A stretch of DNA of 33,970 bases from a virus, in UHGV virus genome UHGV-0040082. One strand, 5' to 3'. The notes below the pieces were generated by a model, which saw only the letters and a program-made list of their open reading frames with translations, searched no databases and was not told the DNA's origin. How positions within the stretch are numbered: position 1 is the first letter of the stretch; the number at the start of each line of letters is the position of its first letter. Below are positions 1,483-27,791 of the stretch, in pieces. The translations under genes were made by a program, and so were the position numbers.

Positions 1483-3831
1483 ATGGCAACTAGTTTAGGT
1501 ACAATTTACTACGAAGTTGATGCAAAAACTGGTCAACTTCTCGTTGCTCAACGACAGGCAGACCAGGCTTTTGACAGCATCGAGCGTGGCGCAAAACGCG
1601 CTGACCGCCAGGTGAACACGCTTAAGACTTCAATCAAAGCGCTATCCAGGGTTATCCATTTGCTACTTGCTGCGGAGGCTGTACGCCAGTTTATTGACAT
1701 GGCGGAGCAAGCGAAAATGCTTCGCGTAAAAATCAAAATGCTTACTGGTGATACGGAGGCTGCCGGACGTGTTTTCGATGGCCTGAAAGAAATATCAAAA
1801 GAAACCGGGCAAAGCATGAAGGATACTGGCGAACTGTGGCAAGGCCTTGCTATATCGCTAAAAAACACATCCGCTACTGAAGGCCAATTGCTAAACCTGG
1901 TCGGTACGATTCAGAAAATGGGTGCATTAGGCGGAGCGTCAGCGGAACAGATGTCTAACTCTATGCGCCAGTTCCGCCAGTCTATAGACGGCGGCGTGCT
2001 GCGTGCTGAAGAGTTTAACAGTCTGCTTGAAAACACGCCAACCATCGTACAGACAATGGCTCGCCATATGGGGTTGTCAATGGGCCAGTTCCGCGCCGAA
2101 ATGCTGGACGGCAAGATCACGGCTGAAAGGATGGTTAACGCGATTCAGGCGGCTACACAGGAAACAAACGAGAAGTTCGCACAGTTGCCGCGCACATCCG
2201 GCATGGCCTTCAATGAGCTAAAAGTTGAGGTGATGGGACTTGTCGAACAGCTTGACGATCTTTTCGGCATATCTGACGGCGTTGTGTCAGCAATAGACTT
2301 AATCACTGGCGGCGTTGAGGGATTAGGTAAGGGCGCAAAATTCGCCGCAACATGTTTCAATACACTCAAAACCGCTGGTAGCGAGTTCATCGACATGTTT
2401 GACGATGTTGCTGTTAAGGCTGGCGAGGTTGCTGAAGAGATTATCAGGATGGTAACGCCAATCAAGGCGCTAATGGATGGGTACAAATGGATGAAGGAGA
2501 TCATTGACAAACGCAAGGAAGAGCTAAACAGCAACAACGAGAAGAAATTCGGCCCCACCATTGGCAAATTCATGACATTCAAGAATGACATAGAAAAAGC
2601 CACAGCCGCCTATGACGAGTTCATGCAGAAACAGGGTGAGGCTGACGATGGCAAGATCACCGGATTCGATCAGCCAGTTGGTAAGCCCAAAAAAGGCAAA
2701 AAGGGCAAAAATGACAAGAAATCTGAAGCTGATCGGCTTGGTGATGAAGGCATAAAAGTGTCCGACCAGTACAACAAGGACGCCGCCGCCATGCGTAAAG
2801 CGCTGGAGAACGGCAAGGCCATTGATGCTGCGTTCGCTCAGGGCAAAATAACCCTCCTTGAGTACAAGGCCGCGCAGAAAGGGATAGGCAAGGAGCTGAA
2901 GGACGAATTGGCGCAAATCCCTGTTGATGAGCTACGCGACAAATGGGATCACATAGTCAGCCCGATGGATCAGCTTAAGGGAGAAATTGACCCAATCAAG
3001 CAGGCGCAAAATGAATGGGCCGTTCGAAAACAAATGCTGATAGACCTTGGCGCTACAGAGGCGCAACAGAAACAGGCGCTATTGGAATACGAACAACAGA
3101 TCAGAGATCTGAAATGGGAGCAATGGCAGGCGCAAAGCGAAACAAACGGCCTGATTGGTGCTTGCGTTAGTGGCCTGAAAGGTGGAATGGGCAACGCCCT
3201 TACCGGCCTACTAAACGGTACTCAATCGTTAAGCGAGGTTTTCGCCAACCTGGGAAGTAGCATACTTAACACTGTTGGCAACAAACTATCAGAAATTGCC
3301 GCCAACTGGATAGCAGATCAGTTGATGATGGAAACGCAAAGCAAGGCTACCCAGGCAAGTACAACGGCTGGCGCTGTTGCTGCCCAAGGCGAGATTGCGG
3401 CGGCGGCTATCCCGGCGGCGGCGGCAACGGCTGCGTCAACTGGTGGTAGCTGGGCGGCGGCTGGTGCTGCGGCGCTTTCTGCGATCATGTCACTGGCAAC
3501 GTCAATCTTTGGCGGCGGGCGTTATAATGGTGGCTCTGTTAATGGTGGTAGTCTGTATCGCGTAGGGGAACACGGGATTCCTGAGTTATTCCAGACTAGC
3601 AACGGGCGTCAGTATATGATTCCTGGCGAGAATGGTAGGGTAATTCCTGGTCGCGATCTCTTCAGTGGTGGCGGCATCAACATGCCTGTTAACATCACTG
3701 TCCAGACCACAAACGGATTTAGCGACGAAGACAGTCGCAGACTTGAACAGACGATGGAACGCGTCGCAATGAAAATGATGGCAAGGGAATCGCAACGGCC
3801 CGGAGGGATGTTACAACCTCGCAGGAAATAA
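1483..3831 (+). CDS. Tail tape measure protein
   Basis: 782 aa, largely helical/coiled-coil composition, Ala/Gly-rich hydrophobic segment (AAIPAAAATAASTGGSWAAAGAAALSAIMSLA), located upstream of M-L-K-I-J homologs; RBS GAGGT. Confidence 0.85.
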   Translation: MATSLGTIYYEVDAKTGQLLVAQRQADQAFDSIERGAKRADRQVNTLKTSIKALSRVIHLLLAAEAVRQFIDMAEQAKMLRVKIKMLTGDTEAAGRVFDGLKEISKETGQSMKDTGELWQGLAISLKNTSATEGQLLNLVGTIQKMGALGGASAEQMSNSMRQFRQSIDGGVLRAEEFNSLLENTPTIVQTMARHMGLSMGQFRAEMLDGKITAERMVNAIQAATQETNEKFAQLPRTSGMAFNELKVEVMGLVEQLDDLFGISDGVVSAIDLITGGVEGLGKGAKFAATCFNTLKTAGSEFIDMFDDVAVKAGEVAEEIIRMVTPIKALMDGYKWMKEIIDKRKEELNSNNEKKFGPTIGKFMTFKNDIEKATAAYDEFMQKQGEADDGKITGFDQPVGKPKKGKKGKNDKKSEADRLGDEGIKVSDQYNKDAAAMRKALENGKAIDAAFAQGKITLLEYKAAQKGIGKELKDELAQIPVDELRDKWDHIVSPMDQLKGEIDPIKQAQNEWAVRKQMLIDLGATEAQQKQALLEYEQQIRDLKWEQWQAQSETNGLIGACVSGLKGGMGNALTGLLNGTQSLSEVFANLGSSILNTVGNKLSEIAANWIADQLMMETQSKATQASTTAGAVAAQGEIAAAAIPAAAATAASTGGSWAAAGAAALSAIMSLATSIFGGGRYNGGSVNGGSLYRVGEHGIPELFQTSNGRQYMIPGENGRVIPGRDLFSGGGINMPVNITVQTTNGFSDEDSRRLEQTMERVAMKMMARESQRPGGMLQPRRK

Positions 3832-3835
3832 ACAA

Positions 3836-3866
3836 AACCCCGGTACAATGCCGGGGTTATCTTTCG
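3836..3866. terminator. Rho-independent terminator after tape measure gene
   Basis: Hairpin aaccccgg-tacaatg-ccggggtt followed by a T-rich tract. Confidence 0.55.
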
Positions 3867-3975
3867 TATTTATAACCGACCATTCCGCACGATATATCCT
3901 CTTCCGAAAATTACCTGTCAAATATTCCAGTTCCCCCCGCCTGGTGAATTTATCGTCATCCATATTTCACCTCAT

Positions 3976-4500
3976 TTATGTGCCATGATTAACACCATAA
4001 TATTTTTCTTCTAAAAACATCCTGTAAGCTACTGCATCACCGAAATCGTCAAAGTATTTATTGCTTTTTCTTTTTCCGTTCACAGCTATATACACCCTCC
4101 ACTGCTCCCTAGACTTGCACCACGATACACCACGAAAACCGCTAGTATTGTTTGACTTTATTTTCCCACTCCTTACGAAATCAGCACAGTTATCAACCTG
4201 ATAACCTATGTTAAGGTTTTCTATTCTATCATCACCCCTTACGTCGTTAATGTGCCTTATTACATGCTCATCAGGTATCGGGCCGTGATGCATTACCCAT
4301 ATAACTTGATGTCTATAGTAATTTCTCTTTTTATACGTGAATATGTAGTAACCGTTTTTATTCCTGGCGCCCACCGGACCCGGTTTTCTTCTTCCTCCAT
4401 TTTCACATATTAAAGTTTTCCAATATATGTTCCCTTCACTGTATATAAACAAGTCATTCCAGTTTATGCTATTGACCATGTCGTGATTTATTTGTGACAT
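3976..4500 (-). CDS. HNH homing endonuclease with C-terminal AP2-like DNA-binding domain
   Basis: HNH-type motif (HINDVRGDDRIENLN) followed by an AP2-like segment (GFRGVSW...W.V.I..NGK...); AT-rich relative to flanking tail genes; paralog of the ORF at 22125-22631. Confidence 0.8.
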   Translation of the reverse strand: MSQINHDMVNSINWNDLFIYSEGNIYWKTLICENGGRRKPGPVGARNKNGYYIFTYKKRNYYRHQVIWVMHHGPIPDEHVIRHINDVRGDDRIENLNIGYQVDNCADFVRSGKIKSNNTSGFRGVSWCKSREQWRVYIAVNGKRKSNKYFDDFGDAVAYRMFLEEKYYGVNHGT

Positions 4501-4742
4501 CCCTTAACCCCTGATAATTCATTAAATTTATGGTGCTCAACTATTGCCCACACTTTTAGATCCTTGCTGTACACTCGCCAATCAAGGTTGGCACGGAATG
4601 CGTAGCCGTATCCGTCTTTCAGTTTTTTGGGTGCTACGTCTTTCCTCAAGAACGCGTCCAGAAGTTCTTTTGCTTTTTTGACTACATGATCAGGTGCGTT
4701 TTTCTGTGCTTTCAGATTTTTACCAATCGCTACCAATTTCAT
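4488..4742 (-). CDS. Hypothetical protein (84 aa) upstream of and overlapping the HNH gene
   Basis: ORF overlaps the HNH start by 13 nt, suggesting an operon; no domain recognised. Confidence 0.4.
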   Translation of the reverse strand: MKLVAIGKNLKAQKNAPDHVVKKAKELLDAFLRKDVAPKKLKDGYGYAFRANLDWRVYSKDLKVWAIVEHHKFNELSGVKGCHK

Positions 4743-5085
4743 AACCCACCCCGCAATCCATTAGTTGACCACTTTCAGGAAGAAATCACGGTACTCATTT
4801 TCCTTCGCGTTCATCATGAATTGACCGTATTTGAATGCGTCATCAAAGCCTTTGACTATCGCCACCTCCACCTGTTCGAATGCGTTGTTCAGCATTACCA
4901 CTACATAACGCTTCATGTTGGCCTCCTTTGTCGGTACTGCTTTTTCTTCTTGCTTTCTATATACATCTTGTCACGCCATATGTGAAGCCATTTTGTAAAC
5001 TGGTTATAATTCTTGTGATGAATTTCTCATTTTTCGCGTAGGAGCGCGTAAAGATGTATGCAATATGTAACTTATAGGGGGAATC

Positions 5086-5439
5086 ATGCCGGAAGTTTTC
5101 AGATGGACGCCGCAAAGAAGCTACAGCGTGACCAGGGAACCAAACGTATCTGTCATTAAACTTGGTGATGGGTATGAACAACGCCAGGCGAAAGGGATTA
5201 ACACATTACTTGATAGTTACACCCTGGTTTTTAAAGGCAGTAGTGCAGGATGCGGCGATGGTGGGAATGTAGCAATCCAGGCGGAAGCATTCTTGAGGGC
5301 GCGCGGCGCGGTCGAGGCTTTTTACTGGTCGCCGTCGATGGATAACGTGCAGAGGCTTTTTGTTTGTCGTAGCTGGAGTATGACCAAAGACGGGCCTGTG
5401 TATACGCTAAATGCAACATTTGAGCAAGTTATTAATTAG
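5086..5439 (+). CDS. M: Minor tail protein M (lambda gpM-like)
   Basis: 117 aa; recalled lambda gpM pattern matches (FRW.P...., GDGY.QR, C..WS, FEQV.N at the C-terminus); good RBS. Confidence 0.8.
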   Translation: MPEVFRWTPQRSYSVTREPNVSVIKLGDGYEQRQAKGINTLLDSYTLVFKGSSAGCGDGGNVAIQAEAFLRARGAVEAFYWSPSMDNVQRLFVCRSWSMTKDGPVYTLNATFEQVIN

Positions 5440-5449
5440 GGGAGGGGAT

Positions 5450-5632
5450 ATGCCTTATTTTTGTGTAGTGGAGCGCACTGGCGCTTTTACATTATTCGCC
5501 GACTATGAAATTAATGATCTTACTGTCCGGGCTGATAACGGTGAGACGTGGTATCTTCATGATATGGGTGATGGATATATCGGCTGTACGACTTGGGATG
5601 GCAAAGAAGTAGCATTTCTATCCTACGATTAA
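5450..5632 (+). CDS. Hypothetical small protein (about 60 aa) inserted after gene M
   Basis: Strong RBS GGGGAGGGG before ATG at 5450; followed by the hairpin at 5639-5660. Confidence 0.35.
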   Translation: MPYFCVVERTGAFTLFADYEINDLTVRADNGETWYLHDMGDGYIGCTTWDGKEVAFLSYD

Positions 5633-5660
5633 AAAAAACACCCCGCCACGGCGGGGTTTA
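5631..5660 (-). terminator. Rho-independent terminator (strongest on minus strand; bidirectional)
   Basis: Hairpin ccccgcc-acg-gcggggt; on the - strand it is followed by a run of eight T. Ends the minus-strand three-gene cassette. Confidence 0.7.
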
Positions 5661-5733
5661 TAGTGTCGATAGTAGAATGCATAACAATCCAATGATGATA
5701 ATAATCATTTCTAGAACGTAATGTTCGCACATC

Positions 5734-5982
5734 TCATAACGCACCCTTCAAATATGCCAATCCCTTATCGGTGACGAATGAATGGTTAACCTGGTTTTCA
5801 TCCGTCATGATGATGAATAACTTTTCCTGTAGGTATTTCGCTTTCGGGTACAGCGTTAAACAGACCTGGTACAGTATCCCGCGCTCAATCAGCAAATCAA
5901 TAAATTCGTGTTCATGATAACCGACGAGGCGGGCGGCCTGTTTCAACGTGTACACATAATCGCCGTGATTGCGCCGCCCCAT
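5734..5982 (-). CDS. Hypothetical protein, cassette gene 3 (82 aa, possible HTH)
   Basis: Third ORF of the minus-strand cassette; the segment YTLKQAARLVGYHEHEFIDLLIERGIL is HTH-like. No family recognised. Confidence 0.45.
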   Translation of the reverse strand: MGRRNHGDYVYTLKQAARLVGYHEHEFIDLLIERGILYQVCLTLYPKAKYLQEKLFIIMTDENQVNHSFVTDKGLAYLKGAL

Positions 5983-5991
5983 GTTGCCGCC

Positions 5992-6344
5992 TTATTTATC
6001 GAACGCAGACAAATTGTCGATACAGAAATCTTTTGCCGCTTTTTCGTATTCGCGTTTTGCTTGCGGATTGTCTGCCGGGAAACCTTTTGCGTGTATTTCA
6101 CCAGGGCAAGCCTGATCCATAGAGTCGGCAAATTCAACATTGACGTTAAAGTTAATATCTTTCGGGTTCATCTCTTCCACCTTATCCGGCACTTGCACCG
6201 GAATAACATAATAATCACGAGCACCAGACCAACAGCGGAGCAATTCACAACCTTCATTACGCGCTGATTCGAATGTGTCAAATAGTCCTATGCTTTCCCA
6301 CTCACATTTATCAGTCCACACGTCTAATCTGTATTTTTGCATTT
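5992..6344 (-). CDS. Hypothetical protein, cassette gene 2 (117 aa)
   Basis: Start placed at the internal ATG (MQKYRL) that has an AAGG RBS; no domain recognised. Confidence 0.45.
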
Positions 6345-6355
6345 TTGTTAACCTT

Positions 6356-6541
6356 TCATTTGGCAGGTTCGATCCTGTATCCCAAAACGCGGTCATCTTC
6401 AGTAAGTAAAAGCGCGTCAGTCAGTGCCTCGCCTTCGTCTTTATACAGAGCCACAGTCATTTCCCTGCCGCCTGACAGGAATACCGTCAACCTCCACACC
6501 TTATCATCCATATCACACCTCCGCGCCATTTTGTTAACCAT
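6356..6541 (-). CDS. Hypothetical small protein, cassette gene 1 (about 57-61 aa)
   Basis: First ORF downstream of the minus-strand promoter; short leader and no clear SD, so the start (6541 or 6529) is uncertain. Confidence 0.35.
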   Translation of the reverse strand: MVNKMARRCDMDDKVWRLTVFLSGGREMTVALYKDEGEALTDALLLTEDDRVLGYRIEPAK

Positions 6542-6557
6542 GCTTACTTTTGAGTAC

Positions 6558-6586
6558 AATATACATATTGTAAAAATCGCTATCAA
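6558..6586 (-). promoter_or_regulatory. Near-consensus sigma70-type promoter driving the minus-strand cassette
   Basis: On - strand: TTGATA (6586..6581), 17-nt spacer, TATATT (6563..6558); ATG about 16 nt downstream of the -10. Confidence 0.6.
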
Positions 6587-6639
6587 CCGTTTTGGTATGA
6601 TTTAGCGTGACGGCGATCACAAAATGACAAGGTGAAAAA

Positions 6640-7344
6640 ATGCGCAGCATACCTACAGAAATGATTATTGATTCCGTCGATGCCGGAGTCGGCGCGGTAA
6701 TTGATTTGTTTGAATTAGACCTCACGCCCCTGGGTGGCGAGGTTATCCGCTTCCATTCCGGCGCGAATGGTTATTACGGCCCGGTTATCTGGAAGGGAGT
6801 GACTTACAACAGCTACCCAATCGAGGCTACTGGCTTCGAAATGAAAAACGAAGGTGTTTACTCGCGCCCGCAAATGGTAGTAGCCAACATTGGCGGGCTA
6901 ATCACCGGGATGAACAACGATTTTAACGACCTGCGAGGAATGAAGGTTACGCGCCGCCAGGTGGAAGTAAAATACCTGGACGCTGTTAACTTCCCCAACG
7001 GCAATCCAGATGCAGATCCATCTATTGAGGCTGTATCTTTTTACGTCGTTGAGACGATGAGCGAAGAAACAGCCGACCAGGTGCAATATGAACTGTCAAC
7101 GCCAATTGATGCTGACAAGGCGGTTATCCCCGGGCGCACAATTCTCGCTGACGTTTGCCAGTGGCAATATCGCGGCGACGGTTGCAGATACAGTGGCGGC
7201 CCCGTAGCTACTGACAAAGACGAGCTAACCAGTGATCCGAAGCTGGATAAATGCAGCCACCGCCTAAGCGGTTGCCGTTTGCGTTTTCCGCGCCCTAATC
7301 CGTTACCAATTTCCTGTTTCCCTGGATCCAGCAAGGTGGGTTGA
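6640..7344 (+). CDS. L: Minor tail protein L (lambda gpL-like)
   Basis: 234 aa; recalled lambda gpL features present (ELDLT..GGE, VNF.NGN..ADP, cysteine cluster C.W.YRGD.C.YSG...KC...LSGC); RBS AAGGTGA. Confidence 0.85.
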   Translation: MRSIPTEMIIDSVDAGVGAVIDLFELDLTPLGGEVIRFHSGANGYYGPVIWKGVTYNSYPIEATGFEMKNEGVYSRPQMVVANIGGLITGMNNDFNDLRGMKVTRRQVEVKYLDAVNFPNGNPDADPSIEAVSFYVVETMSEETADQVQYELSTPIDADKAVIPGRTILADVCQWQYRGDGCRYSGGPVATDKDELTSDPKLDKCSHRLSGCRLRFPRPNPLPISCFPGSSKVG

Positions 7345-7346
7345 TT

Positions 7347-8078
7347 ATGGCACTTGAAGATAAAATGATTCGCTATGCAGCGGCCCACCCTGACGAGGAA
7401 GTATGCGGGCTGGTGATAGATAACGATTATTTTTACCCGTGTTTAAACGTGTCTGAAACGCCGCACAACAGCTTTAAAATCTCGCCTGACGATTATATCA
7501 AAGCTGACGAATTAGGCGTTATAACAGCCGTTTTCCACTCACATACTAACGATTCATTGGTATTGTCAGCACGGGATCGACAACAGCAGGTTATTTCCGG
7601 CCTACCGTGGTTTTTATGTTCCGGTGGCAGGGTAAGAAAATTCCGCCCGGTAGCGCACCTGTTAGGCCGTAAATTTGAGCACGGGAAAACAGACTGCTAC
7701 TCGCTTTTTCGTGACGCCTATCACCTTTGCGGCGTGGATCTGCCTGACTTTGAGCGCCGCGATGGGTGGTGGCTGCGTGGGGAAAACCTGTACATAAAAA
7801 ACCTGCCATTGAACGGGTTTTTCATGGTTGACGCGCAAAACATTCAGCCCGGTGATGTGATTATCCGCCAGCCGTTTAAAGGCGCTGACCCATGCCACGC
7901 GATGATTTACCTGGGCGATAACACTGTTTTGCATCATGACAATGCCGGACTGTTAAGCCGCCGCGAGCAAATGCGGCCCGCGTATGTTCGACAGACCAAT
8001 TCAATATGGAGATCTGACAAATGCTCAAATTTAGATTTACGGGCAATCTTCGAAGATATTACGGCAAGGTGTGTTTAA
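7347..8078 (+). CDS. K: Tail assembly protein K (JAMM/Mov34 plus NlpC/P60-like)
   Basis: HSHTN (HxH metal motif) in N-terminal half, Cys/His-containing C-terminal half; position between L and I; ATG at 7347 with GGTGG RBS. Overlaps next gene by about 58 nt. Confidence 0.8.
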   Translation: MALEDKMIRYAAAHPDEEVCGLVIDNDYFYPCLNVSETPHNSFKISPDDYIKADELGVITAVFHSHTNDSLVLSARDRQQQVISGLPWFLCSGGRVRKFRPVAHLLGRKFEHGKTDCYSLFRDAYHLCGVDLPDFERRDGWWLRGENLYIKNLPLNGFFMVDAQNIQPGDVIIRQPFKGADPCHAMIYLGDNTVLHHDNAGLLSRREQMRPAYVRQTNSIWRSDKCSNLDLRAIFEDITARCV

Positions 8079-14149: not shown

Positions 14150-14385
14150 TAGTTAGCTACACAGTTAGAAGGGCTACCGATGCGGCGCATGTTGTGATCG
14201 AGTTCATGACACCATTGACCAGTATAAGGCAGTTTTTCAGTGTCATAGACAAGATGACCTTCACCATCATAGACAACATCTTGTGGAATTACTCCGCTAT
14301 TCGGCAGGTTATGCAATGCGGCCTCTTTGTCAACAGCGCAACCAGTAAGAGCTACGGCCGCAGAGAATAAAACCACTTTGAACAT
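14146..14385 (-). CDS. Small lipoprotein (candidate Cor/Llp-type superinfection exclusion protein)
   Basis: 79 aa; N-terminus MFKVVLFSAAVALTGC = signal peptide plus lipobox; small mature part with two Cys; opposite strand between J and the side tail fiber. Confidence 0.55.
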   Translation of the reverse strand: MFKVVLFSAAVALTGCAVDKEAALHNLPNSGVIPQDVVYDGEGHLVYDTEKLPYTGQWCHELDHNMRRIGSPSNCVANY

Positions 14386-26839: not shown

Positions 26840-27143
26840 ATTCTATCTCCTATGATTAGAGTGAACGCGCGGGCGGGCATCCCATTAGCATTAGATAGCA
26901 GTGACTGACCGCTCAACAGATCCCGCCGTTGCGTGATATTTGTTTTTCGCTTCGCAGCGACACCGGATTTTTAAAGAGCTTAAGGCGTCGGCCTTTTTGT
27001 GCTTTCCCTTATCTTTTTCCTTGCATCATTGCAAGTATGGCTTTACCTTGTCAGCAAGTTTACAGAATGGCGCTAACGGGTCAAGACTTAAAAAACACGT
27101 TTTGTGACTTGCATCAAAATTTTTTAGGTTATAGGGTAGCGAC
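26840..27143. promoter_or_regulatory. Divergent control region between Cro-position gene and repressor gene
   Basis: 304-bp intergenic region between divergent starts; repeated element CTTGCATCA at 27019-27027 and 27109-27117, the first within inverted repeat TTGCA-N4-TGCAA; weak TTGCAT/TATAGG promoter-like pair just before the repressor ATG. Confidence 0.45.
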
Positions 27144-27647
27144 ATGAAAACAAAATGGTATGACTTAGCAAAACAACTCATGCGGGCGCAGGGCATGAGC
27201 CAGGATTCATTGGCTGATCTTATGGGGATAACCAAAGGCGGCCTTTCTCACTGGCTGAACGGTCGCCGTGAGCCGAATCTTGAAGATATTGCGCGTATCA
27301 TGCGGGCGCTTGGGCGTCGGCAATTCACTGTTACTCATGACGGAATGGTCATTGATGATTCTGTTTCTAACACGTTGCTGGGAGCGCCACCGCGTGATTT
27401 AGGCAGTTATCCGGTTGTTGACTGGAAGGATGTAGCAAACAATATGGAAGGCACACACCGATCAACATTGCCACACGTTGCTACTAGCGTTATTTGTTCG
27501 GATGATAGTTATTGGCTGGTTGCTAAAGGTGAATCAATGAACGCACCGCAGGGGTTAAGCATCCCGGCGGGGACTATGATACTCGTTGACCCGCACGCGC
27601 CAGCTATTGACGGAAAACTTGTTATAGCACAACTGGAGGAAGGGTAG
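27144..27647 (+). CDS. CI-like repressor (HTH plus S24 peptidase domain), ended prematurely by in-frame TAG
   Basis: N-terminal HTH (MSQDSLADLMGITKGGLSHWLNGRREP), S24 Ser motif GESM; TAG at 27645-27647 comes before the expected catalytic Lys segment. Confidence 0.75.
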   Translation: MKTKWYDLAKQLMRAQGMSQDSLADLMGITKGGLSHWLNGRREPNLEDIARIMRALGRRQFTVTHDGMVIDDSVSNTLLGAPPRDLGSYPVVDWKDVANNMEGTHRSTLPHVATSVICSDDSYWLVAKGESMNAPQGLSIPAGTMILVDPHAPAIDGKLVIAQLEEG

Positions 27648-27791
27648 ATACCTACGTTTAAGCAGTTGATTATTGATGGAGGCCGAAAACTTTTGCGTTC
27701 GCTTAATCCGCTGTATCCGCCAATCCCTATGAATCCAGAATCAAAAATATTGGGCGTGGTGGTTGATGCGAAGATCGTAAACCTGCCATAA
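27648..27791 (+). other. In-frame continuation of the repressor reading frame after the TAG
   Basis: Same frame translates to IPTFKQLIIDGGRKLLRSLNPLYPPIPMNPESKILGVVVDAKIVNLP, resembling the C-terminus of lambda CI (..FTFKKLI..LQPLNPQYP.I.....VVGKV..), ending at TAA 27789-27791. Confidence 0.7.

Follow-up and report, generated by a model that had tools for sequence, protein, structure and literature searches.

Between tail genes M and L of UHGV virus genome UHGV-0040082, three small genes run against the late operon. This raises the question of whether they belong to the tail or form a unit of their own and, if the latter, what such a unit would act upon. The DNA analysed (hereafter, the window) is the whole stretch of 33,970 nucleotides (nt), in which the cassette occupies 6586..5631 on the minus strand, between M (5086..5439, plus strand; Pfam Phage_min_tail) and L (6640..7344, plus strand), and comprises a promoter, three closely packed open reading frames (ORF1, ORF2 and ORF3) and a hairpin followed by a T8 run. 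An original prediction, made from the letters of the sequence, had outlined these elements, and the promoter, the three minus-strand ORFs and the hairpin with its T8 run were all present where it had placed them. The phage is an mEp021-like (mEpimmI) temperate siphophage of Escherichia coli. Our analysis points to an accessory operon of the moron type, the last product of which is a KilAC domain standing alone. We give a probability of about 0.5 to the reading that this operon is a regulated module acting on the host or on repressors.

An accessory operon inserted between M and L

The region from 5400 to 6700 matches phage MagusPhagus along its full length and phages mEp554, mEp044, mEp013, mEp010, mEp515 and mEp021 over ~70 % of its length (86–92 % identity). 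It was also matched in 35 of 5426 complete E. coli genomes; the cassette is kept as a unit in 34 of these, as well as in seven phage records and 44 viral contigs, while the 35th genome retains the promoter side only. For comparison, 53 related loci were drawn from E. coli chromosomes as well as from phage records and viral contigs. All 53 share the gene order L, ORF1-ORF2-ORF3 (on the opposite strand), a gp70-like ORF and M, bearing out the expectation that the ORFs would be conserved as a unit in related phages. Identity to the window was high for L (84–100 %), M (85–99 %) and ORF3 (87–98 %) and ranged more widely for ORF2 (60–100 %) and ORF1 (43–96 %).

Two relatives lack the unit. In Erwinia phage vB_EhrS_49, the nearest outgroup found, with an L that is 69 % identical, the two tail genes overlap by 4 nt and nothing lies between them. 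In the prophage of E. coli MS 21-1, which belongs to the same group as the window, the distance between M and L is just 124 nt; the promoter side is kept up to GTTAACAAAAT and then leads straight into the end of M, a junction that indicates precise loss of everything from ORF1 through the gp70-like ORF. The G+C content is 0.41–0.47 in the insert and 0.48–0.53 in M and L-K, a modest difference. With a conserved promoter and terminator of its own and an inserted position between M and L, the cassette appears to be an autonomous accessory operon (a moron), as originally predicted, and not a part of the tail, and this conclusion is far more secure than the target proposed for it below. Homology to ordinary structural proteins, which had been named in advance as evidence against such a cassette, was found for none of the three ORFs.

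Like the morons of lambdoid phages (HK97 gp15, lambda lom and bor), the cassette has its own promoter and terminator between late genes that are adjacent in relatives, lies modestly below its flanks in G+C content and can be lost from a prophage. It differs from them in comprising three genes plus optional cargo instead of one gene, in being antisense to the late operon, in being nearly fixed in its lineage and not sporadic, and in its products, which are predicted to be cytoplasmic proteins of a binding type and not membrane or surface proteins. The window holds the minimal version. Relatives carry optional ORFs in the same operon, either between ORF2 and ORF3 (a 79-amino acid (aa) ORF or an HNH-AP2 endonuclease) or after ORF3 (a 67-aa ORF, a 58-aa ORF and a 45-aa hydrophobic peptide, MKIEVLALIAMGLIVFGVHA...); examples, in cassette coordinates, are L050 999..1136, L033 915..1118, L022 675..914 and L020 659..1144. 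No Pfam match was obtained for the optional cargo ORFs of relatives.

ORF1 (6511..6356, minus strand, 51 aa) most likely starts at the conserved ATG at 6511, which has GGAGG 6 nt upstream and agrees with the annotation of mEp021_74. An alternative ATG at 6529 (57 aa) is kept in most relatives and is out of frame in some alleles, and forms of 61 and 76 aa are not conserved among relatives. ORF2 (6342..5992, minus strand; stop codon 5994..5992) encodes 116 aa and ORF3 (5982..5734, minus strand) encodes 82 aa. Among the sizes first proposed, that of ORF3 was right, whereas the middle ORF has 116 and not 117 aa and the first has 51–57 aa, the proposed 61-aa form being the unconserved one. The gaps separating the three are 13 and 9 nt, and we therefore regard them as one operon.

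The ratio of nonsynonymous to synonymous divergence (dN/dS; Nei-Gojobori estimates over all unique sequences) was 0.25 for ORF1 (synonymous divergence, dS, 0.82), 0.27 for ORF2 residues 1–57 (dS 1.2), 0.09 for ORF2 residues 72–116 (dS 0.60) and 0.11 for ORF3 (dS 0.32); for the whole of ORF2, it was 0.24. Purifying selection of this order (dN/dS 0.09–0.27 at dS 0.3–1.2) indicates that the three ORFs are genuine protein-coding genes. A 119-aa ORF on the plus strand over ORF2 (5908..6267) varies in length and is broken in relatives, and for the latter reason we regard it as a shadow ORF.

The gp70-like ORF (5450..5632, plus strand, 60 aa; phrog_3249, function unknown), which the original prediction did not mention, follows M and ends at the cassette hairpin. 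Its product looks all-beta. The ORF is present in every locus carrying the cassette, was lost with it in MS 21-1 and is missing from vB_EhrS_49; we take it to be part of the same inserted segment, and its product, expressed late, could work together with the cassette.

Promoter, upstream dyads and terminator

The predicted sigma-70 promoter (6586..6558, minus strand) consists of a −35 hexamer TTGATA (6586..6581), a 17-nt spacer and a −10 hexamer TATATT (6563..6558), with a predicted start near 6551. It scores 10/12 and is the top promoter-like site within 3500..7500; however, seven such sites were found in this interval against 8.0 expected from shuffles, so the match alone proves nothing. Support for the promoter comes from the conservation of its hexamers. 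In 40 unique upstream regions, the −10 hexamer shows no variation (mean pairwise difference, pi, 0.000), pi amounts to 0.049 in the −35 hexamer and the 17-nt length of the spacer is constant. The 130-nt intergenic DNA between L and ORF1 as a whole has a mean pairwise difference of 0.124, compared with synonymous values of 0.33 in L, 0.47 in M and 0.50 in ORF1, and is much more conserved than nearby neutral sites.

An 18-bp palindrome, TACAATAT-GT-ATATTGTA (6555..6572), lies over the −10 hexamer. Its 8-nt arms are 100 % complementary, its pi is 0.036 and it has a single match in the window even with three mismatches allowed; it is a candidate operator. An operator common to the cassette and the immunity region was considered, and no other copy of the palindrome is present anywhere in the window. 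The consensus of the LexA box is CTGT-N8-ACAG; the palindrome, 2 bp shorter, has no CTG/CAG triplets, and it was rejected as a LexA box.

Further upstream is a dyad, TGTGA-TCGCCG-TCAC(G) (6621..6607, minus strand), centred ~62 nt before the predicted start, which resembles a site for the cyclic AMP (cAMP) receptor protein CRP and agrees with the core of the CRP consensus, TGTGA-N6-TCACA, at 9 of 10 positions. Patterns like this core occur twice in the window against 0.25 expected. The arms of the dyad hardly vary (pi 0.010 and 0.030), in contrast to its 6-nt spacer, in which variation is near-neutral (pi 0.304); a dyad-symmetric protein-binding site usually leaves such a footprint of constant arms around a variable spacer. 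The centre falls at about −62.5 or −63.5 from the predicted start, and the class I position for CRP is near −61.5. As the start is only predicted and a 1-nt indel divides two allele groups, we treat CRP control of the cassette as a lead and not as a finding. A looser motif in common with the cassette dyad, TTGTGA-N6-TCA, also occurs just upstream of the repressor gene (27102..27116) and inside a small ORF after J (14192..14206), giving three matches in the window against 0.32 expected, a recurrence to which we attach no meaning. In the MS 21-1 prophage (L059 4990..5113), the promoter, the CRP-like dyad and the palindrome all remain, and the orphan promoter aims into the 3′ end of M.

At the other end, the intrinsic terminator (5657..5631, minus strand) consists of a hairpin (5657..5640) with a G+C-rich stem of 7–8 bp (ACCCCGCC/GGCGGGGT), followed by T8. 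The arrangement CCCCGC-loop-GCGGGG was found in 45 of 45 unique cassettes, with variable loops. The plus-strand side of the hairpin has a short T run only, and the hairpin should therefore stop the late transcript more weakly. A scan of 3500–7500 against Rfam returned nothing at the gathering score.

A KilAC domain on its own

The three proteins had been described as matching no recognisable family, which proved wrong for ORF3. This protein scores 27.5 bits against Pfam PF03374 ANT/KilAC (gathering threshold 25.3; profile positions 23–102 of 108), its homologues hold a precomputed PF03374 assignment, and its copy in mEp021 is labelled 'putative antirepressor' in GenBank and a KilAC domain protein in RefSeq. 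Residues 12–82 align with the C-terminal part of Rha/Ant antirepressors from Vibrio, Cronobacter, Hafnia and Stx phages (30–39 % identity), so that ORF3 corresponds to the KilAC domain alone. It may hold a MerR/excisionase-like helix-turn-helix (HTH), an HTH-like fold being weakly supported.

With one exception, ANT/KilAC-domain proteins are antirepressors. The exception is AriS of Listeria, whose ANT/KilAC domain inhibits the SOS response by itself, probably by way of RecA (PMC9043618); for an isolated ANT/KilAC domain, no other activity has been defined by experiment. The C-terminal domain of the ANT/KilAC antirepressors (P1 Ant1/KilA, Rha/Ant of Stx and Vibrio phages) and of AriS aligns with ORF3 over 70 residues; ORF3 differs from these proteins in lying in the tail region and not in an immunity or early region.

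Probable paralogy of ORF1 and ORF2 and an orphan conserved module

ORF1 belongs to phrog_29559 (function unknown) and has no match in Pfam, PADLOC or NCBIfam. It occurs as four sequence types (43–96 % identity), and an unrelated 52-aa ORF takes its place in two loci. The product is a small soluble protein, probably with a beta-beta-alpha-beta domain. Some homologues carry the name 'transporter' in RefSeq/NCBI (e.g. WP_458677821.1, L003 3096..3251), for which we found no support in this charged, soluble protein of 51 aa.

ORF2, which likewise has no Pfam, NCBIfam or PADLOC match, is made up of two parts. Its N-terminal domain (6342..6172, minus strand; residues 1–57) is highly variable, with at least six allele types, and residues 1–50 are modelled confidently as a beta-beta-alpha-beta domain (predicted local distance difference test score ~95). 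The C-terminal module (6171..5992, minus strand; residues 58–116) is nearly invariant, with the motif DSMDQxCPGEIHxKGFPADDPxAKREYEKAAKDFCIDNL, and its model is mostly unstructured and of low confidence save for a helix at 93–109. Fold searches of the ORF2 model against the PDB gave generic matches only. Against viral models, the N-terminal domain matched small uncharacterised phage proteins, the best being DUF7336 (Foldseek E value 1.2e-3). DUF7336-like phage proteins (50–60 aa) share its beta-beta-alpha-beta topology (target-normalised template modelling score 0.73); however, ORF2 has no Pfam hidden Markov model match at E values up to 1, and the family is itself without known function.

ORF1 and the N-terminal domain of ORF2 are probably tandem paralogues. 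Profiles built from all alleles aligned end-to-end in hhalign (probability 85 %, P 6e-6, score 28.8), the top score among 30 column-shuffled controls being 16.4. Consistent with tandem duplication, the 11-mer GGTTAACAAAA occurs exactly twice in the window (0.03 expected), both times in the cassette (6539..6529 and 6353..6343, minus strand); the first copy runs into ATG 6529 of ORF1 and the second stands directly before the ATG of ORF2. The 51-aa protein of the neighbouring antisense cassette (described below) was considered as a third paralogue and rejected, as it lacks similarity to either. The types of ORF1 and of the ORF2 N-terminal domain are linked, yet they are found in many combinations, which argues against a strictly cognate pair of the toxin and antitoxin kind.

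The C-terminal module may also be translated on its own, with Met58 as an internal start. Met58 (ATG at 6171) is nearly invariant and is preceded by a Shine-Dalgarno-like GGTGGAA (6181..6175, minus strand) that ends 3 nt before the ATG, with its GGTGG core 5 nt before. Despite synonymous divergence elsewhere, GGTGGAA is present at this position in 24 of 25 distinct contexts, and the 25th has GAGGA. Stand-alone homologues of the module (56 aa) begin at the Met equivalent to Met58. One of these (L054 5001..5171) is found in a run of small same-strand genes on an unrelated 58-kb contig with a Mu-type portal, from which it follows that the module circulates independently of the N-terminal domain; this suggests an independent unit, and we infer that it would bind a conserved partner. 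A search of viral contigs for stand-alone loci of the module gave none. When 1.84 billion representatives were searched exhaustively with an HMMER profile, the ORF2 family proved essentially confined to these E. coli phages, with four strong relatives plus fragments; two long repeat proteins (P0110 and P0112) were discarded as low-complexity artefacts. RecA mimicry by the module was also considered, on account of a phmmer match (E value 9e-5) to PDB 3cmu, a head-to-tail RecA concatemer. What the two have in common is a short helix cap, DNP..AK..EK, and because the chain is a concatemer in which no single stretch passes the threshold, the match was treated as chance.

A proposed regulated module and its alternatives

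In the mechanism that we propose, transcription from the sigma-70 promoter would run through ORF1, ORF2 and ORF3 to the strong intrinsic terminator, head-on to the late operon. Expression of the cassette could take place in the prophage state or soon after infection, and would presumably cease once late transcription arrives from the opposite side, as in noncontiguous operons; mutually exclusive expression has been demonstrated for antisense genes nested in staphylococcal phage operons (PMC11087260). Like tha/ith of phage 80alpha, the cassette is a unit with its own promoter nested antisense in a long operon. The two differ in that the proteins are unrelated and that tha/ith involves a single nested gene in the cI operon, whereas the cassette lies in a late operon. 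Its promoter would probably be regulated, with the palindrome over the −10 hexamer as the likely operator and ORF3 as a candidate binder, and cAMP would control expression through the CRP-like dyad near −62. The three products would be small cytoplasmic binding proteins and not enzymes; neither enzyme, toxin and defence signatures nor membrane signatures were found in ORF1-ORF3 of the window using Pfam, PADLOC and NCBIfam. The C-terminal module of ORF2 would probably fold on its conserved partner. As a whole, the module would modulate a host or prophage circuit, either through antirepressor-type binding to a repressor or through damping of RecA/SOS in the manner of the KilAC domain of AriS. 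While our results show the anatomy of the cassette, its conservation and purifying selection, the family of ORF3 and the inserted, dispensable character of the unit, we infer the timing of expression, the regulators and the target, and the figure of about 0.5 applies to this reading as a whole.

The mEpimmI phages are reported to be as prevalent as lambdoid phages in a coliphage collection from human faeces, their lysogens are mostly not inducible by ultraviolet (UV) light, and their CI-like repressor Rep021 lacks the Ala-Gly cleavage site (PMC11893012). An SOS-modulating or antirepressor operon would fit a group with these properties. The idea can be carried further: the cassette might be the missing induction/maintenance switch of a UV-insensitive prophage group without RecA-dependent repressor cleavage, a cAMP-CRP-gated, autoregulated operon in which the KilAC domain and the peptide module act on RecA/SOS or the repressor, nutrient state and not DNA damage decides between lysogeny and lysis, and the variable paralogous domains set specificity to co-resident prophages. 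In this extended form, we consider it distinctly improbable.

Several observations weigh against a regulated module of this type. In about half of the relatives, a G-to-T change in one arm makes the palindrome imperfect; the distance from the dyad to the −35 hexamer shifts by 1 nt between allele groups, helical phasing not being strictly kept, and the dyad could bind a protein other than CRP. ORF3 lacks the N-terminal domain of canonical antirepressors (AntA/B, BRO-N, Rha or KilA-N), and no Pfam match to these domains was found in ORF1 or ORF2 either. Its link to AriS consists of Pfam membership only, across phyla, and BLAST fails to join the two. The existence of a prophage without the unit means that it is not essential for lysogeny, and the optional cargo of relatives, including the 45-aa membrane peptide, would fit a generic cargo slot equally well.

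A role in defence or exclusion was among those originally suggested for the cassette. In such a system, expressed from the prophage against other phages, ORF1 and the N-terminal domain of ORF2 would sense phage proteins and ORF3 or the C-terminal module would be the effector. The moron layout, with a promoter of its own inside a late operon, is in keeping with this, as are the allelic diversity and mosaic recombination of ORF1 and the ORF2 N-terminal domain (dS 0.8–1.2), which resemble those of arms-race genes, and a slot that also takes other small cargo genes; the antisense placement would prevent self-targeting in lytic growth (PMC11087260). However, we found nothing specific to defence. 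ORF1, ORF2, ORF3 and the gp70-like ORF are all without a PADLOC-DB 2.0 match at E values up to 1, no NCBIfam or toxin match was obtained, the proteins have neither an enzymatic domain nor one for pore formation or nucleotide signalling, and the window version is without a membrane segment. The average dN/dS of 0.25–0.27 gives no sign of positive selection, and experiments in this phage group have traced exclusion to lipoproteins that are encoded elsewhere (PMC11893012), leaving defence as an unlikely role in our assessment. We rate as rather improbable a function in early counter-defence or host takeover, with small proteins made right after infection to neutralise defence systems, RecA or the division machinery. 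A strong sigma-70 promoter that needs no phage factor speaks in its favour, as do proteins that are small, soluble, fast-evolving and without a family, and the stand-alone homologue of the C-terminal module belongs to a series of small genes on one strand, of the sort that typically make up early accessory regions. On the other hand, takeover genes do not usually sit in the late region at a great distance from the early operons, and the candidate operator and CRP-like site suggest control by host state and not unconditional early expression. General fold searches, made without a dedicated anti-defence library, revealed no similarity to known anti-defence proteins.

The compact operon, the DNA-binding-type protein and the palindrome over the promoter, together with a ParE-like toxin gene in the neighbouring antisense cassette, could also be taken to indicate a toxin-antitoxin or addiction module with ORF2 as toxin, ORF1 as antitoxin and ORF3 as transcriptional autoregulator. 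Yet ORF1 and ORF2 match no toxin or antitoxin family in Pfam, PADLOC or NCBIfam, ORF1 and the N-terminal domain of ORF2 look paralogous to each other and unlike a toxin with its antitoxin, and their types are met with in many combinations, ORF1 even being swapped for an unrelated ORF in two loci; we hold this explanation to be highly improbable. The least credible of the alternatives is an accessory function for the tail itself, in which the cassette tunes L-J in cis through transcriptional interference or termination, or encodes assembly chaperones. It would account for a unit fixed in the lineage along with the late-strand gp70-like ORF, and for the hairpins at 5640–5657 and after the tape-measure gene, both of which sit inside the late operon. 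Against it, the nearest outgroup builds a homologous tail without any of the cassette, all three ORFs are under purifying selection at the protein level, Pfam and PHROG revealed no resemblance to tail chaperones, and the published account of 16 virion proteins mapped in mEp021 omits the cassette genes.

A second antisense cassette and the repressor gene

Another antisense cassette is located between the tape-measure gene (1483..3831, plus strand) and M, at 4916..3976 on the minus strand, with a hairpin at 3836..3858. It encodes, all on the minus strand, a 51-aa ORF (4916..4761), an 84-aa ParE-like toxin-domain protein (4742..4488; PF24732, 34 bits) and a 174-aa HNH-AP2 endonuclease (4500..3976). 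In relatives, the 51-aa ORF and the ParE-like gene are kept together while the endonuclease comes and goes, and the first two may be a toxin-antitoxin pair. The hairpin is perfect, G+C-rich and positioned directly after the tape-measure gene, with a terminator score on both strands, and a terminator is annotated at this position in mEp021. Tail genes K, I and J lie on the plus strand in the same late operon as L, and with hairpins at 3836..3858 and 5640..5657, late transcription must pass at least two terminator-like hairpins to reach L-J.

The CI-like repressor gene of the window (HTH_3 and Peptidase_S24; 27144..27791, plus strand) contains an in-frame TAG (27645..27647) at codon 168, and the S24 profile alignment runs on past it. 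This copy is either a nonsense mutant or the product of a sequencing or assembly error.

Significance of the cassette

Elements of this kind are well known, and the cassette sequence, originally put forward as a candidate undescribed system, is already contained in mEp021 and its published relatives. A 2025 paper on the group lists a 'KilAC-like antirepressor' among manually defined core genes; the cassette, its promoter and the other two genes are not discussed there. The unusual features here are the multi-gene composition, the antisense orientation, fixation in a lineage, a bare KilAC domain, a pair of probably paralogous domains and an orphan conserved module.

Should the cassette be a plain lysogenic-conversion gene set, the gain from this description would be modest. 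It nevertheless offers a conserved peptide module without known relatives and a defined slot for small cargo genes, as well as a minimal natural KilAC domain for testing the SOS inhibition described in Listeria. As an operon that is nearly universal in the poorly UV-inducible mEpimmI group, would be regulated and shut off when late genes are transcribed, and encodes an antirepressor-type domain, it presents an obvious and cheap target for genetics.

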